Shown: in pieces, positions 21,106 through 36,100 of the stretch
Layout of the letters: the number at the start of each line of letters is the position of its first letter
Numbering within the stretch: the stretch's first letter is position 1
Source: Lophium mytilinum
Lineage: Eukaryota
Assembly (NCBI GenBank): GCA_010093605.1
Contig: MU004194.1
Coordinates: forward strand, 534,323-598,322
DNA length: 64,000 nucleotides
Direction: 5' to 3'
Translations under genes and position numbers: made by a program
Notes under the pieces: model-generated
What the model saw: only the letters and a program-made list of their open reading frames with translations
Database searches by the model: none
Told to the model about the DNA's origin: nothing

Positions 21106-23066
21106 GATTGTACGGACAAAGATACCAGGAGGCTGAATAGCATGGAGAAGGCCAAGGTGTATTGGTGTGCTTGTAGAGGCTCGCGAGTCGACTGTAGTGA
21201 GGTGGTATCTCGATTGCGGCGAGGCTCTGGGCACGTATCGTGCGTCATAGAATACCTGCCGTCGCTTTCCCCTGTGTACTATGGGCGTACTCTGCACGGT
21301 TATTTCTTTACTTCTCCCTTAGATCTCGTGGTCTCAATCAATATTAGTATACTAGCAACAAAGCTACAGCCTCTAGATCACCACTCGACTCGAAAACTGT
21401 ATACCTCCCTAGTGGACCTACTATGCTAGTACTAGGGTAAAGCAATATAAAGCGGGGTTGTGGAGATGTATGATAGGATATACTAGCTCTTCCGCAAGGC
21501 TAGAGTATAGAAGAGGGAGTGGAACATGTAATGGATTAGGTTAGTAGCGAGTGAGAAGAAACTATCGAGAATATCGAGTAGGTGGATTTGAGCTCCACTA
21601 CCCAGGCCAGGGTCAGCTGCCCGAGAATAGTAGAGCTCCTAATCCTCGCTGACATGATGGTGTAAAGTTAATCGAAACCACAACATGTAGCATAAGGGCA
21701 CAAAAGGAATGCGAAGTAAGCATAAAAGAAAGACTTAAGTCGTGAGTAAGGTTGCTGCGAGACGTGAGACACTCTACCTGGGCATGTTTCTCTTCCGCTG
21801 AAAAGGGACTAGCTGTTGCTGTTGGTCTTCGAGACAGCATTGTTTTGATCTTTTTGAGTTTTGTTGATGCTGGTTTCATCAAGTCTTGTCTTCACTAATC
21901 AAACGCCACAAGCTCGAGACAATCAGAAGCTACGGTCCGCACGCCCCCAGTCCACAGGTGTTCAGGGGAGTCCCTCGTACCATGTTGCGGAGCCGCGCGG
22001 CGCGAAAAGGCATTTGAGCTTAGAACGTGCTTGGGACCCGGGGTGCAATTGGCCATGTCGTGAAACTGTTTGTCGTAGAGAAGCTGCAGTGTTATCTGGC
22101 GTCGCCGTCGGAAGCAGGTCGCACAGCGGTTATGATTGCGCGGGGAACGACCTACCCCTTTCACAACGTCCACGCGTCGTGCGTGGTTGAGATATAGATG
22201 CTGGTTGGCTTGTAGGGTTGCTCTCTAACGCTAGATAGGCATGTGAAATAGAGATGTGCGTCTCTGTAAGGCGTGCCCCCTCCCCCAGTCGGCGACCGTC
22301 GCCCAACCAGCGTGCAGAGATGCAGAGAGAGATGCTACAGCGGAGTCACATGACCGTCGTCCTGCTCTTCCAAGTGCTCGTTCCGTTTCGGACAGGGTGC
22401 TTCGTCGCCAACGGGTCCTTTCGTGAACCTTGAAGGAGCCGAAAAACTCCGGTACTACGTAGTGTTCAGAGTGTCGTCTTGGAAAGCCGGGTTCTTGGCT
22501 TCAATGTCTAACAGTTGTGAAATCGTTCCGCCGCACAGAACGAGGAGAGCGCGGGACTTGGCAGCGATTCCTTGACACAACAGCTGCTCCACTGTGGCTC
22601 CGCTGACCCCATAACTGTTCGGATATCGGCCACCAGCCTCCCGCCCAAGCCATTCAAGCCCTTGGCAAGGCACAGGGAGGCAGGCGGCGCGTTCTTGGCT
22701 CAAACTGGCAATGATCGATAGCTTCTGTTCGGCTTCCCCTGTGCATCACTTACCCTACAAGTCAACTGCAATCCACAATGCCCTGGATAACTTGCGATTA
22801 AACTTGTGATCCGCGCCGAGGCCAAGCCCTCCACCATGGCTAATAATAATAAGAGACGCTGGCGGCGACCTACGGCGCAGCCCGCTCTCAACCTTGGTTC
22901 TTCCCCTCGCAACGTCGTTTTCCTTCCCGGAACTGTGGCTTCGTCCTTATCTATGATCTTTTTATTATTCACAGTCACTCTCTGAACATCTCATTACCGT
23001 CTCATACTATCCTTTCATTAATTTCATGACCTTTCATATTTCCATCGTCCACATTTGCCAGCAAGA

Positions 23067-28072: not shown

Positions 28073-31000
28073 TCAGCGACCGGTTTCGGAACTGCGGTCA
28101 AAAAGCCATCGGTTTATCGCGCTCGGCCACCTCTGATCAATGAGCGCACTCACGCGATTTAGGATGCGATTACCGCCTAGGAGAATCTGGAAACGTTCGA
28201 CTCGCTCGTCCGCTGCCATTAGGATAAAGGCTGGAAGACCGAATACCTGACTCTCGTTTTGATCCGATTCAGAAGTCGAAACGAAAGGCGTGTTTGGAGG
28301 AGGCTTCAGCGTGGCGAGGATGGCTTGGGCTGCATACGCATTCAATCCGCATCGGCGAAGAAATAGCTCCCACTACGCGATTAGACCCAAACATCAGTAG
28401 CGGATCTCGTGTAGGTTCGAGAAAAGCTGCTATCCACTTACTAAGGTCTCCTCTTGTAGCAATTTCATCTCATTAGGCCGATCTGGAATCATCGAGATTC
28501 CCCAGCGCTGCATAGCCCACACAATCCATCTTGCAAGAGATTCTTTTCCACCGGACAAATACTTGATGGACACTGCCGCCTCCATGGACGAGCATAGCCC
28601 TTCCAATTCTGACAATGCTGTGGTGTCATATTCGTCGACTGGATTCTCGAGTCCATCTTTCTCGCGTTCTGCACTGAGGCCCTCGCTGACGAACACGACC
28701 AGTTGCTCGTACCTTTCCGATAGGTCATACATTCTAGCCCTGACTGAAGAGTGATCGGGCTGCCCTGGGAGAGCCCGTTGCTTGATCTGCTGCAAAGTCG
28801 TCAACACCAGCCCGGTAGAAGCCGAAAGAATAAAGTCTGCTTCGTTCGCGGGTGAATGAGGCACTCCGAAGTCTCGTTCGATCAAGTCCACTTCAGCATA
28901 GAGTTTCTGTATCGTCCTAGTCAAGTGTCGTTGCGCCAGAATCGCGGCTGAGATGACAAACGAACAGGGCGGTAGGTTATTCGGTATGCGTGGTTCGCGG
29001 GCGTCTTTCCGTGGAAGTTCCGGGACAGCCTTTGGCTTCTCACTAGAGTGCGGGACTTCTGGGGTTACATCCTTTGATCTTAACGGTACGAACGCATTTT
29101 CAGGGTCAGTCTCTGTCGGCTTAGACTTCTTAGGTGCTTTGCCACGCACGTCCATGAACTTGTCCAGCGCTGTAGATGCTGAGAATATGCCACCGAACAT
29201 GAGACCACCGTCCGGCTCTTGGACTTTTCTCGTGCTAGAGACCGCTTCCTGTCTGGAACCGGGGGCTGCGCGTTTGGCGTTTGAAAGGCTAAGCTCGGTG
29301 GCACGTGCATCGTTTCTTGTCAGATCAGAGTTGATCTCAAGGTCCTCCAGCAATTCGAGTCTCCGTTTCCGTAGCAGAGTCTCCATGTCCTTTTCCGCGT
29401 GGAAGTCTCCTACTTCGAGTTCTTCATCGCTTTCCTCTGTGCAATCAAGAATTCTCAGCCCGTCGGGCTTCCACGTAAGTGCTTCGATGTCCACAAGCTG
29501 CCCTCCACTAAAACCATGGAGCATCTGAGCCAAGAAAGGATCTTCATCAATTTCTTCATCTAGAGCAACAGTGCCTAGCTGTGTCGGAAAAGGACTCCAT
29601 GGAAGTTCGTTCTCGAGTTTCCGGACGCCATGCCACGATGAGAAGTTCCGGAAATTATCGCGTTGAACGATTCTGAGTAGATTCATCTGAGAAGCTAGAT
29701 CTGTCTCGTTACTCGTATGATTGCTCTTTGCCTTGGGCTGAAACTCTAGCCACGGTGGGCAAGGCAATGAGAAGTCGAGTTGTGGTACATTCATTCTTCT
29801 GGTAGTATCGACCTCCTGAAGTTGCTCGTTTTCGAGCCGTTGATTAGCTGCCACTGCGTGTGGATTGATCACTTCATCAAAGAAGCTTTCAAAATCGTCC
29901 CCAGAGCTGATCAAGTCGTTATCAGACTTGGTTGTTAGCGGCAGCTTTAAAATTGGAAGAAAATCTTTAGCAACTTCTGAGAAAGAATCCGACTTGACTC
30001 TTTTGCTTGAAGACTCTAGTGTCATGGGCGGAGTTAGTGGGCCTTCGATCTTCAGATCAGCAGCTTTCCGCTTCCGAGGCACCGAAGATGGGACTTCTGA
30101 TATATCACGGAGCGGACTGTAGATTTGACCAATATGAACGTCATCAGGATTCAATGATTCGCTGCCGTCAGAACCGGTACACATCGCAGGAGTGAGGATT
30201 GAATCCAGTTTCATGAGATGGTCGTCAAGCGCTTGACCTTCTGCGGCTGTAGAGTTAGTGAGCTCAGAGAGTGGCTCCATGTGACCAGCTGGAGAGTCGA
30301 AAACAAACTCGTCAAATGGAGGCGTAAGAGGAAGCAACGGCGGAGTCATTGGCTCGAGGGCTGGGTTCTAAATTTCTTAGTAGTAATGCGCATGTACGAT
30401 GGATTCTACTTACTCGTCTATACTGATCTGCCGCGGCTTTCATGGCATCTAGATCTCTGGGGGTGTAGGAGTCTTTCATGGCCGACTGTAGAAAGAGGAC
30501 GTCCTCTTTCGATACCTGCAGTTTTTCTTTTTCTGCCTCCAGGTGCTTGGAAAATGGGAGAGAACGATACCTCGCAGGCCAGGTGAGTCCTTCATCATTG
30601 TCCTCATCGATTCGCTCGAGAGGCAGTTTGAGCGTTCCAAAATCTGGCACTGCGACACTCCCGAAATTGCGCAGGTCAGCTTCATTATCAGATCGCAACA
30701 ATGGCAGCTCTTGCTTGAGATGCGCCACTCTTCGCCGGTCCTCAACGGTTGTAACCTGGTACTCCGGCAGTTCCGGTTGGGTGCATGTTAGCTTCAAGAG
30801 TATTGCTACGTCTTTGCTCAAGGTTAGTCGTTCTTTGAAGATGAAGTCCGAAGCCAAGTCCGCTAGTGAGATGCCGATGGGATCTTGGAGATCCGATTCA
30901 ATCTCATGATCTGACACAGGCGTGGCATGGCCGGCGAGCGTTAGTTCCGTAGCGTAAGGTATGGTCAGCTCAGATTGGCGTGCGTATTCCAGGGCGCTCA

Positions 31001-31124
31001 AGTCTTCGTACTGATCACCGGTGTCCTCATGGTCCGCATTGTCTAGCGATCCTGCGGAGGAAGGTGTGACGTTGTCATGGTCACTTACTTGGCACGCCAA
31101 CGAGGATCCTTGGGGCTCCGACAT
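28073..31124 (-). CDS. Large protein with C-terminal XPF-like and HhH region; probable Zip2/SHOC1-type meiotic crossover factor
   Basis: Exons 31124-30414, 30367-28442, 28372-28073 join in frame. C-terminus reads LIERDF..EADFILSASTGLVL..EETLWELFLRRCGLNAYAAQAIL..LPAFILMAADERVERF. Gene model is solid; the family call is inferred. Confidence 0.65.
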
Positions 31125-31603
31125 ACCTACGTCATGCCGTGATGATTCTCATTAGCTGGGCGAGGTTATAATCGCGTTCGATGATGTTCGGGAAGAGATG
31201 GAAGTCGATGCGAAGTTCCGTTGACGTTCGGGATCTGCAATCACGTGCTTTGCACTATGCCGTTCTGGATTAGCGCATCGTTAAATATTGCCAAATACTC
31301 TGCAGGCACACCAGTATCACGAGAAGACAAAGAGTTCAATCAGTGTTATCCATATTTTGGTGCCATGCCTTAAGATACATGCAATGAGGGTTGGGGTCCA
31401 GTGAAACAGACCCGCATAGACACGCTCGCTAATTCGCATGCCATGATAATTTCCACAAAAACGCCAGACTGTCTCATCGGTAATGGAAAGAGATCAACCT
31501 CTTCTCGCACCGAGGGCTGATCAGTCAACGCCAGAGCCTTTTGTATGGTAGTAAGCCATGGAAAGAAAGTAGGGCCGTGTTGGAAGCCGGATCAAACTCG
31601 TCT

Positions 31604-32944
31604 CTAGTCATTGTAGTTGACAATGCCCGAGCCGTCCTTGTTGACCTTGGGAAGACCATAGCGTTCAGCAAGGTCGTCCTCCTGGGATTTCCCGGCGGGA
31701 TCAAAGACTGGACGTTCGCCCTGGCAGCAAACTCGCACGGCGTGGCGACGATGGGGCGCAAAGCCGTAAGATGCAGAGTGATTCTAGGGCACTGTTAGCC
31801 GTTTCCAAACCAAGTGTCGAGGAGTCAAAACGTACGCAGACACGGTTGTCCCAGAAAGCGACGTCGTTCTTGTTCCACTGGAAGCGGACGTGCAGCTCCT
31901 GGGTTGTGGCGACGATCTCGTTGAGATATCCCAGGATGGCATCGCTCTCAGTCTTGGGGATCCCGACAATCTTAGTGACGAAGCCAGGATTGAAGAAGAG
32001 CGCCTTCCAGCCCGTTACGGGATGGGTGCGGACGATGGGGTGCTCAGTGATGACAGGCTCGCGGCGGACAGGACGGCCCAGATCACGTGATCCTTGGGCT
32101 TGCATCTCAGCGGAATGCAGAGCGGTGAGGCCCTCGAGGTACTTTTGCATGTGCGGAGAGAGGGCATCGTATGCTGCATACTGAGAGGACCAGAGGGTGT
32201 CGCCTCCTCCGCCGCGTGGAGGGCCAGTGACGACCTTCAGGGACGTGTAGGAAGGAGGTTGAATCTCATAGGTCACTAGAATCATTAGCTTTTAAAGCGA
32301 TCATGCTGCATGATGTTGCGCTTACCCTAGGTTTGTCAGTATTGCTTCGTGGTGGGGAGAGAGCAGAGGCCACTTACATCAGAGTGCCACAAGAAGGATG
32401 GAGCAAACATGGCCCGCATGTCGGTCGAGTTCTCACCGGTGTATACAACATGAACATCCTCCAGGCCAGGACGCTGGGGCACACAGGTGGTTGCGTGCTT
32501 GTGCAATGTGCCAAAGTAAGCTCCAAGCTCGCGCTGAGCATCGATGGTTAGGTTCTTTTGGTCTCGGAAGAAGACGACGCCACGAGTGGCAATTAGGCGT
32601 GCGAGGTCATCCTTCTGGGCATCCGTGAGGTTGGCCAAGTCGACGCCGTGGACCTCTGTGCCAATCTTAGGGTTGTAGTCGAAGACATCTGTGGCGGCGC
32701 TAAGGAGGTTTCGGAACTCTGGGTCGCCGTTGAGGCCCTTATCATGGTACGGGACCTCGGTCAAGGCCGGCCACTTGACTTCGGGGAAGCGTGGGCGAAG
32801 ATCCTCGAACTCGTAGTTTTCGTGTGACTCGACGACATTGCGGCCTGGTGTGTAGTTGATTGTAGGCTTGTTCTTGAGAGGAGCCTTGACGTCCGAGTTC
32901 TTGAAGGCGTCATACTGAACGGATTCCACAAGGCCAGGTGCCAT
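31604..32944 (-). CDS. TauD/TfdA alpha-ketoglutarate-dependent (sulfonate) dioxygenase
   Basis: Exons 32944-32378, 32326 (1 nt), 32275-31836, 31783-31604 give IGTEVHGVDL, RGVVFFRDQ, WHSDVTYEIQPP, GGDTLWSS, HPIVRTHPVTG and WDNRVCNHSA. Confidence 0.95.
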
Positions 32945-33142
32945 TTTGATGGATTGAGTAGTGGGTGTGTGGGGAGTGGGTTCAAGAAGGGATTAGATGA
33001 GGGAATGGTTGATGAGAGATGATGAAGGACAATGGGCACTTGTTCAGACAAATGGCTCAATGCAGTGGTGGTTTGGAAGAAAAAGAAGAGAGACGGAATG
33101 GAGCTTTCTTATATTTCAAAATGACTGGAAGCGGCCGGCCAG

Positions 33143-33152: not shown

Positions 33153-36100
33153 AGGCAGACCGCTAGGCCGATGGCCTCGCTGCTATAACGCAATACCGTG
33201 GACGAGCACACCATTGCGGGACAAAGCGCTGTCGCTGGTCCCCGCAAAACCGCTAGGCACATGGGCCATATCAGAGAGATCCCAGCCGAGCCGCAACGCT
33301 GCAAGCATCAGATCAAGCACACGTCAATTCTCCGGGGTCTTGACGCACTGCACAGGCACCAAACTGGGAGCATTCGCCAGCCATGTCGTGCTCGCGCGCA
33401 CAGGGCACTGCGGCTCAGACTGCGATGGTGCAATCCAGCACACTGGCGAATGATTACCGGACGGAGGGCGGGAGCGGTGCAGCGCAGCAGTAAAACTAGT
33501 CACTTGCCATCTGCTCTAGGAGTTTCGCCGTCAGATAGGCCCAATTATTACGCAGCAGGCCGTATAGCACGCCGGTGGGTGCGAAGGGAGGCAATTTGGG
33601 ACGTGAGGTTGGATTTCACATCCATAAGCGCGCCAAGCCAAGCGACGCCATGCCCGATCGGGGGCCCGAAACGCGGTGAAAGCCAGGCCTCAATCACGCA
33701 ATCGTCGGACTCCATGGCGAACGACGGTGGTTTTGGTCGCCTTGTCAGAACTCACGGCATATGTAATGCCCGTCTCGGTCGTTGTTCCAGCACCCTCTGT
33801 CTGTCAGTCTCCCGGCCTCCCGAGGCCCTCCGCATGGGCTTGCTCACCGCGGCGTCGTCCCTCTCTTCCAAGCTCATCCAAGTTGGGCCGGTCTGCAGCA
33901 ATCCCGCCCCCTCACAGCAGTTACACGGCGCTGTGGCGCCTATCCCCGAGCTTGCAAAGTTGCCAGGAGCGGAGCATCTGGGCCGGAACAGATGCAATCC
34001 CTCAGCCAGCTCGCTCCGCGCTCAACTCTCTCGCATGTCTAGCGTACGTGCGCATGTGGGCCCGGTGGCTGTCTGTTGCTTCTGGTATTCTGCTCTTGCA
34101 TGCTGGCGAAAATTGGTGCTTGCGCCGTCCGGGGTAGCCGAGTGAAGCATGAGGTTTGTCCAAAACGTGCGCTTTTGCCGCACTCCTATTTTCGAAAATC
34201 ATTAGCAATCAAGCAGTGGCCAGTGAGTGTCACGTATTTCTGAAAGATAAGGCCTTGTGGCAGCTCACCTCAGCTGCCTCGTCTTCGCGTTTGATTCCGT
34301 CTCATGCTAGCGTATGTGGGTCCGATACGGAAGTCTGTGGTGTTGCTTCGACGGATGTCGAGATACACAGCGTCACACCTGGACCCTGCGTTATCCGCCT
34401 AGCGTGGCCGTCACCGGCAGCCCGCACCCGCGCCTGCAGAGACGCAGAACCTCCAGCCCTGTCTGGCGACCGGTTCTCTTCCAGCATGCCATGAGCAATT
34501 TCCATCAAGCATGGTAGCCTCGAATCACTGGTTACAGCCACTGGGCGCTGCACTTTAGACGCTGGACTCCAGGCGGTGGACGTTCATATGCTGCATCCGG
34601 CATCGACCACGGGACTTGCGTCACTCCAGCTTGAGCGCGGCGTTGATGGCAAGACGATCTCGACCGCGGCCTGAAGAAGCCGTGTCAGAGCGATCAGCTC
34701 CAAGGACGAAGGAATGAATCAGAGGCTGTTGAGGTGGTGCAGAGCTGCTACTGATTGGGCGACAACTATCATGTCCGATAGCGAGTGTTGTCTGAAGAGC
34801 AACATCTAACGAAGCCCTGGACCTCGCAACTTCATGCGCCAGCCGCAAATCTGCTGCACCGCTTGTAGAACAAGGAAGTTGGTCCCATGAGCATCTGTGA
34901 TGCGGAAAGCGTCAGAAGTAGTGCCGGTCTACAACTTGGCGATCCGGTCGGCGCGTACGACCTCTACCTCCATTTCTTCCAAAACTCACGATGCACATTC
35001 ACGAGTACCTCAAAAGTAGCATGTGTGCTGAAATATGCTATATTCTCTCGCGAGTCAAAATTTGACGACGGTAGGCCCTCCTTCGCAGTAATTGTCTCAT
35101 CTGCTTCTTTTTCTTTGTGTCTGCTCTATCAGCGGTGGTGACCTCTATCTGACCGCCACGCTTCAAATACCCCACATACGCTAGAAGCCAATCTGGTTAT
35201 ATGATCCCACGACGCCTTCCATCGTCTCATCGACTTCAATATTCGTTTATACTTTCGATATTCCTTCGCTCTCTCGCCAACCTTGCTGCCAATACCCACC
35301 ACCTCGGTGCGATTTCGTCGCCACTTGTGATATGCATTATCAATTGTATTCGGAAGTGCTAGTACTTGCATGGACGCTCCTGATGTCAAACTTTGCATAG
35401 CCCTCATGTCAAGATTGCAGACAGGGCGCCCTACGGACATTGTTTCGATGGAGCAATATTGACACATCATGAGGATGACAAGCAATTGCTTGGGCGATTA
35501 CCCCAATGAAAAGCCTATCCAATACTATCTCTTCCATAGAGATGTTCAGCACAAGAGCCATACAACATGGGGCTCAAATTTTCGCAGGGAAATGTGCTCT
35601 AGCCATAGCTTTCTGTTGTAGTCACAAGACCGAAGCTCTAGTTCTGAAGATCATGGGTCTACTACTAGCCTTGAGAAGTTTCCCGAGCATTGTAACCTTG
35701 GAAAGCTGTGCGGCGTGTCCGTACTAGATGTTCGGGATGTAAAGTGTTGTCGCCGCTTTAAAGCCTGGAATACTTGGTCGCGCCTCCGTCTGCAACATCG
35801 CCAGACGTCCAAGTAGCCGTTATCTGCAAGTCGAGGAACTATGCTAGCTCCGTGCTGGTGACAGCACCCATCCTAGTCTTATCCGTGCAGCCAAACTAGA
35901 AGATCGAAACTACCCCTTCCTGCCGAATACGCCAGTCTTGCATCAAGCCGACTGATGTCCTCATTATGACTAATAAGTGGAACTCTCGTCTGCGATAGGT
36001 AGGCTTCTCATTCGACCCATTTGCTCACTGCCACGAGGATCAACTTCCCGTGGATGCAGGCTGCACTCCGGACTCAACCCTGCGTTTCTGATCCTGGTAG

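Follow-up and report, generated by a model that had tools for sequence, protein, structure and literature searches.

How does a gene keep its reading frame when two introns within it lie so close together that only one nucleotide would be left between them? The question is raised by a locus of Lophium mytilinum (GCA_010093605.1, contig MU004194.1), where the coding sequence of a TauD-type dioxygenase is interrupted by 102 nt that can be read as two adjoining introns around a lone G. The window, i.e., the whole stretch of 64,000 nt that was analysed, was read on the minus strand between 31500 and 33600. The two-intron layout had been proposed in a first-pass annotation, and its bases and coordinates for both introns and the lone G all match the minus-strand sequence. 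The features of the gene are listed below in transcriptional order; X1, X2 and X10 are sequencing runs whose contigs are taken up further on.

32378..32944, minus strand: coding exon 1, with the ATG at 32944-32942 and 189 codons ending in ..FLWHSD (TGG CAC TCT GAT); 0 mismatches to the X1 contig.
32327..32377, minus strand: intron A, 51 nt, phase 0 after the Asp codon, with a GTAAGT donor, an ACTGAC branch site and a CTAG acceptor.
32326..32326, minus strand: probable one-nucleotide exon, G, the first base of the Val codon G+TG.
32276..32325, minus strand: intron B, 50 nt, phase 1 within the Val codon, with a GTAAGC donor, a GCTAAT branch site and a CTAG acceptor.
31836..32275, minus strand: next coding exon, starting TG ACC TAT GAG, i.e., the TG of the Val codon plus 146 codons (TYEIQPPSY .. 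FWDNRVC).
31784..31835, minus strand: intron C, 52 nt (GTACGT .. GCTAAC .. CTAG), exactly absent from the X1, X10 and X2 contigs.
31604..31783, minus strand: last coding exon, 59 codons (NHSASYGF .. VNYND) plus the TAG stop (31606-31604), present in the RNA contig.

Inspection of the interrupted region reveals two complete introns of the U2 type, each furnished with its own donor, branch site and acceptor, and exactly one base between them. The branch-point adenosines lie at 32336 in intron A and 32285 in intron B, in both cases 9 nt from the 3' end, and the sizes of the two halves are typical locally, 51 and 50 nt comparing with 52 nt for intron C and a median of 50 nt among the orthologs. 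Excision in either order leaves the other intron intact, and the acceptor of intron A has bases in common with the U1 binding site of donor B. As the first-pass annotation had also pointed out, the removal of all 102 nt (intron A, the G and intron B) produces GAT TGA, an immediate stop, and the retention of intron A produces a stop too. The latter comes after 14 codons (ORF 32336..32992, ending ..WHSDVSGLCSLPTTKQY). Retention of intron B likewise results in an early stop, and intron C lies downstream of every early stop.

The protein family places the junction at a sensitive point. His-x-Asp followed by Val-Thr/Ser is present in the gene, with WHSD closing exon 1 and V-T following; we take this His-x-Asp to be the iron-binding motif, its ligand role being known from work on E. 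coli TauD. In Pfam searches, exon 1 matches PF02668 (TauD) over residues 88-189, which correspond to profile positions 3-102 (E 9.4e-12, 45.8 bits), while the next exon matches profile positions 104-247 (E 6e-36, 125.1 bits), both scores being above the curated cut-off of 27 bits for this family. A single profile position, 103, falls between the two matches and is filled by the valine that arises from the retained G. Structures of E. coli TauD (1gqw and others) are matched by both exon 1 (E 4.7e-06) and the next exon (E 5.1e-26), and relatives carry the database names 'sulfonate dioxygenase' and 'taurine dioxygenase'. Judged by these similarities, the gene product is an Fe(II)/2-oxoglutarate dioxygenase of the sulfonate/taurine type from a Dothideomycete-like fungus, the putative substrate being taken from the database names of the relatives.

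Comparison with other proteins indicates what the junction should encode. Among the best 120 of 345 full-length relatives above the threshold, WHSDVTYE spans the junction in 102, with WHSDVSYE in 5, WHADVTYE in 3 and WHSDVTFE in 1, while in the other 9, all of them ORF calls, the Asp is followed by the translation of an in-frame intron of 48-84 nt and then by Q, V. The WH[ST]D motif itself is found in 117 of these 120 proteins, the remaining 3 having WHAD.

Sequencing runs were used to establish what the mature message contains. Twelve runs matched the locus, none of them recorded as RNA, and four were compared with 31500-33100 in the form of contigs. Run X1 is treated as RNA, which is the tool's guess only, because its contig is devoid of the introns; it contains 0.83 of the sampled words, the share expected if the words from introns are missing. 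The X1 contig (2648 nt, depth 138.4) comes from the same organism, is placed on 31500-31783, 31836-32274 and 32376-33100, and shows 0 mismatches and 0 gaps relative to the assembly across 1448 nt, both untranslated flanks included. Between 32274 and 32376 it is shorter by 101 nt, not 102, with a joint ambiguity of 2, and its message reads GAT-GTG-ACC, encoding D-V-T. The mature message thereby retains one base and the reading frame, WHSD-V-TYE. The earlier proposal that keeping the lone G restores this motif is thus borne out from two sides, 101 of the 102 nt being removed in X1 and 102 of the best 120 relatives reading WHSDVTYE. In two related organisms, represented by X10 (depth 5) and X11 (depth 9.48), 101 nt are missing as well, the Val codon being GTA, whereas the X2 contig contains the intron C joint only. 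The sole contig from the same organism, X1, represents the productive form. Unspliced, skipped or half-spliced forms were found in none of the contigs from the four runs, which leave 32310-32363 uncovered; as contigs drop rare variants, this absence is uninformative. About 1020 nt of the X1 contig extend beyond 33100 (33100-about 34120), which takes it over 1.1 kb upstream of the ATG; this extension may represent a long 5' leader, or else the contig may have absorbed a neighbouring or antisense transcript. A 318-codon open frame at 33189-34145 on the plus strand has no Pfam match.

A joint of 101 nt could in principle be produced in more than one way, and a script was used to list every removal that gives it, with each interval of a two-interval solution being at least 20 nt. 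Only one of 66 two-interval removals has GT/GC..AG on both intervals, namely 51 nt, the G at 32326 and 50 nt; the model of two introns and a one-base exon, as originally put forward, is therefore the only canonical solution. Three single-interval removals also fit, all with non-canonical ends (GT..TA, TA..AG and AA..GT). The message could, on paper, be the outcome of one such non-canonical intron of 101 nt (GU..UA, UA..AG or AA..GU), excised in one step with no one-base exon, as each of the three yields the observed mRNA within the joint ambiguity of 2. The known spliceosomal classes are GT-AG, GC-AG and AT-AC, and to our knowledge none of the three pairs of ends belongs to a known class, which counts against this reading. 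Moreover, it competes with a fully canonical alternative with two branch sites at the usual distance, and we regard it as highly improbable.

The one-base arrangement is more than a chance product: a branch site, YAG, one base and GTRNGY splitting a 102-nt intron into halves of at least 40 nt were obtained in 17 of 200000 shuffles. The octamer AGGGTAAG alone is not rare, with 2 matches in the window versus 1.27 expected; the other match lies at 22749-22756 on the minus strand, in surroundings which look non-coding. An in-frame alternative running from a weak donor, GTGGCC, 4 nt downstream, to acceptor B was considered and set aside; it would introduce an extra Met (D-V-M-T), and the RNA contig differs from this. 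Additionally, the two introns are already canonical in the unspliced sequence, and no splice signal is made or mended by the excision of either. A stwintron, as defined in the portions of PMC5587772 (2017) drawn on here, has an external intron whose donor, branch site or acceptor is split by an internal one, so that the external intron is canonical only once the internal one has been excised. With no splice signal interrupted or rebuilt at the present locus, the first-pass view that this is not a classical stwintron holds under that definition. On the whole, the gene very probably carries a real one-base exon between two small introns.

A scan of metagenomes provided 66 orthologous or paralogous loci, which were classified by script, with the hard ones checked by hand. 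A single phase-0 GT..AG intron of 44-158 nt (median 50) lies exactly between the Asp and Val codons in 53 of the 66 loci, and these orthologous introns are all followed by GTN (once ATA); 11 loci are intronless at this D/V position and 2 were left unread, having no upstream exon in the locus. The double layout is seen in 0 of the 66 loci, and an internal AG-N-GTRNG in 0 of the 53 orthologous introns, in a DNA-level comparison outside of which the closest relatives fall, i.e., the organisms of X10 and X11 and Mytilinidion resinicola (protein 93% identical over exon 1). Shorter ORFs (n=119) tell the same story about the acceptor: the read-through residue before Val is Q in 44 and K in 3, accounting for 47 of the 47 informative cases, and this constant Q or K before Val is the mark of a NAG acceptor in phase 0. 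With an acceptor of the intron B type, L, S, P or similar would instead stand before Val, and this was encountered in 0 of the 47 informative read-through ORFs.

This distribution, with an intron at D/V in 53 of 66 loci, indicates that intron A is ancient and occupies a position common to most Pezizomycotina orthologs; the orthologs have an intron at the position of intron C too. The closest locus, L001, is a syntenic ortholog with 78, 90 and, over the last coding exon, 90% identity to the three exons, with the same downstream neighbour and intron C in place, and it has a single 49-nt intron at the D/V position. Near the branch site, intron A weakly resembles that intron, a score as high being reached by 87 of 2000 shuffles, whereas intron B shows no resemblance to it (1614 of 2000 shuffles as high). 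Given its absence from 53 of 53 intron-bearing loci, intron B looks like a lineage-specific gain beside the old intron, which we infer to have come about by insertion. The first-pass annotation had called for an alignment of orthologous loci to examine the conservation of both introns: this conservation extends to the position of intron A (53 of 66 loci) and not to intron B (0 of 53).

Two possible sources of intron B were rejected. As a tandem duplicate of intron A it scores no better than shuffled sequence (579 of 1000 shuffles as high), and as a repeated introner-like element it has no second copy in the window or the 66 loci, the best other matches being of 10-15 nt with E values of at least 0.49. 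No special RNA structure was apparent either, the folds of intron A (z 0.84), intron B (0.00), the A+G+B segment (1.38) and intron C (0.14) being no better than those of shuffles. Within intron B, 32300-32314 form a 15-nt near-perfect palindrome (14 of 15), which is the only hairpin of an intron whose fold z is 0.00.

A few individual loci from the scan deserve mention in their own right. The intron of locus L034 (1339-1500) at the conserved position is 158 nt long, threefold the median, and contains no internal AG-N-GT donor. Locus L002 (1-900), the second-closest relative (87% over the exon), looks degenerate, being AT-rich with an in-frame stop in the YEIQPPSY motif and no recognisable upstream exon within 439 nt; it may be a copy decayed by a RIP-type process. 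Loci L054 and L055 (~1240-1530) are intronless, read WHSG-I-TYE with Asp replaced by Gly, and show an upstream frame break; they are probably pseudogenes or retro-copies.

The genomic neighbourhood offers a further point of comparison. The downstream neighbour at 28433-31148 on the minus strand encodes a DUF7102 protein (PF23394, E 1.1e-41), and the pairing of TauD with DUF7102 recurs in five metagenome loci (L001, L002, L003, L005 and L006). Further neighbours encode an acyltransferase, a zinc alcohol dehydrogenase and a desaturase with cytochrome b5, and the domains of the neighbours in the window include no sulfur gene cluster around the gene. A 1285-aa protein from a lichen fungus (P0059) is annotated with TauD, PF23394 and PF23395, and probably results from these two neighbouring genes having been merged into one gene model.

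The ortholog comparison also bears on whether the genomic sequence itself can be trusted at the second acceptor. Exactly the same mRNA would result if the true genome had one more G at this point (..TCTAG/GTG ACC), reading ..CTAGGTGACC.. at 32277-32270, one G more than the assembly; the gene would then have a single canonical 102-nt phase-0 intron, its internal AG-G-GTAAGC being coincidental, and mature RNA cannot tell this from the model with a one-base exon. Such an error would also give an acceptor of the form YAG/GTN, the type seen in all 53 orthologous introns, among which a long intron (158 nt) does occur. Against this, the missed base would lie in a run of just two G, and the RNA contig equals the assembly at 1448 of 1448 bases with no gap. 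Likewise, the full set of internal signals, found in 17 of 200000 shuffles and 0 of 53 orthologous introns, would have to be fortuitous. The strong internal branch site with its first AG would then constitute a harmful decoy that causes a +1 frameshift, and an intron of 102 nt would rank second longest among the 54 at this position. The first-pass annotation had looked for a possible assembly error at 32325-32327; this was the wrong place, the critical position being the GG/G at 32276/32275. The database matches include no same-species proteins or ORFs that confirm the DNA of the second acceptor (starting MILVTYE..), the best database ORFs being 73% identical by E-value (up to 87%, at partial coverage) and 81%, and the full-length proteins 93%. 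On balance, the assembly is likely to be correct at the second acceptor, and the missing-base reading appears unlikely.

A related possibility is that the copy in the window is broken, having lost a base at the acceptor of a long intron, and that the RNA derives from a second, exon-identical copy with a normal intron. Spliced RNA is indeed silent on which locus made it; however, the 0 mismatches over 1448 nt, including both untranslated flanks, speak against another source, and the same chance internal signals would be needed as for an assembly error. We therefore hold a second copy to be extremely improbable, and continue with the one-base exon as the preferred reading.

Under this reading, the pre-mRNA would contain two small U2-type introns, each complete in itself, with a single exonic G between them; both would be removed constitutively, each being defined across its own ~50 nt, i.e., by intron definition. 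Since acceptor A and the U1 site of donor B overlap, the two excisions would take place successively; the sequential splicing by intron definition suggested in the first-pass annotation is a reasonable inference. The G thus retained would complete, together with TG, the Val codon after the iron-binding His-x-Asp. According to the portions of PMC5587772 consulted, intron definition operates in Pezizomycotina, as stwintrons show, and the same reasoning of sequential removal by intron definition is found in the Discussion of PMC4674806 for Arabidopsis APC11, as far as the excerpts of that paper go. As for the origin, intron B may have been inserted later than the ancient phase-0 intron A, one base into the downstream exon, whereby the one-base exon would have been created by an accident of this insertion.

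The first-pass annotation had further envisaged that skipping of the G, by splicing donor A to acceptor B to give GAT TGA, could serve as a regulated off-switch coupled to NMD, an idea which would be added to the above model rather than replace it. The sequence is compatible with it to the extent that skipping of the G, retention of intron A and retention of intron B each lead to an early stop with intron C downstream. Nevertheless, no skipped form occurs among the contigs of the four runs (contigs drop rare variants), and the sole same-organism contig is productive. Further, with its presence in 0 of the 53 intron-bearing loci, intron B has the look of a recent accident rather than of a conserved means of control. 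The off-switch hence finds no support here, and we consider it quite unlikely.

A more general, and tentative, reading is that the locus presents a snapshot of one-nucleotide intron sliding, in which a new intron is born one base past an ancient phase-0 intron and the one-base exon is tolerated constitutively. We think this rather doubtful as it stands; were it true, the later loss of intron A would leave an intron that seems to have moved by one base, its phase changing from 0 to 1. Such a history would constitute a route to one-nucleotide intron shifts other than the stwintron intermediate discussed in the consulted portions of PMC5587772, and an origin of one-base exons other than the lost-base rescue proposed in those of PMC12940212.

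If the one-base exon is real, the implications are chiefly practical and evolutionary. Gene finders cannot place an exon of one base, and annotation would render the enzyme either as broken or with an incorrect residue beside its iron-binding motif. The locus would furnish an RNA-supported case in a second class of ascomycetes, with a known ancestral state (one intron, 53 of 66 loci), and this ancestral state would favour an origin by intron gain beside an old intron over the adoption of cryptic sites. It would also provide a natural substrate for studying how two spliceosomes handle overlapping sites, in this instance acceptor A and the U1 site of donor B. The finding refines and does not overturn the existing picture, the class of one-base exons having already been published for plants and fungi.

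Ratchet points of recursive splicing can be viewed as zero-length exons, where the first ligation regenerates the donor and not a single base is retained. The present junction resembles them in that an acceptor adjoins a donor (AG/GT) and removal would be stepwise, but it differs in that one base is kept and donor B is present before any splicing. Recursive splicing at ratchet points is named in the excerpted Discussion of PMC4674806 (Guo and Liu 2015), a paper which describes the constitutive single-nucleotide exon of Arabidopsis thaliana APC11. As far as these excerpts show, APC11 shares with the Lophium gene a one-base exon between two U2-type introns, for which intron definition and successive removal have been inferred in both cases. 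Unlike the present case, which draws on sequence and RNA contigs, APC11 is a plant gene and was tested by means of reporter constructs and base substitutions.

Within the fungi, the available parts of PMC12230235 report 13 one-nucleotide exons in 13 genes of Coprinopsis cinerea, annotated from long reads. These are comparable to the exon described here in being fungal and transcript-supported, and in that their omission breaks the reading frame; in contrast, they are from a basidiomycete and come from a genome-wide annotation that, in those parts, carries no per-gene analysis and states no evolutionary polarity. With 13 such exons in one mushroom genome, the extreme rarity which the first-pass annotation ascribed to one-nucleotide exons is overstated. 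Stwintrons, to return to the portions of PMC5587772 used above, offer a parallel of another kind: they too involve two consecutive U2 reactions within ~100 nt in Pezizomycotina under intron definition, and both systems bear on one-nucleotide intron shifts. The difference lies in the introns themselves, which at the Lophium locus are both complete and independent, abutting an exonic base instead of overlapping by one.

The closest counterpart is the one-base exon with an AG/G/GT core, supported by reads, in the CYP621A gene of 20 Fusarium species (PMC12940212; Nelson and Syed 2026), which the sections of that paper drawn on here describe as the second instance on record and the first from a fungus, and for which they propose the rescue of a lost base by a cryptic exon in a long intron. 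To the extent covered by those sections, the two cases have several features in common, both being nuclear genes of Pezizomycotina with the same AG/G/GT core, a lone G within the codon of a conserved motif, a total intron length about twice the usual and a junction supported by spliced RNA. They differ in that the gene described here encodes a TauD dioxygenase and not a P450, and belongs to another class of fungus. Further, the ancestral state is readable here as one ~50-nt intron (53 of 66 loci), which suggests a gain and not a rescue by a cryptic exon. The Fusarium exon is conserved in 20 species, whereas the double layout is found in 0 of the 66 loci of a DNA comparison that has the closest relatives of Lophium outside it. 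Among the matches listed by a full-text literature search on one-nucleotide exons, none has a TauD gene in its title. One-base exons are, then, already known in both plants and fungi, and the Lophium locus adds to them another gene family and another fungal class.
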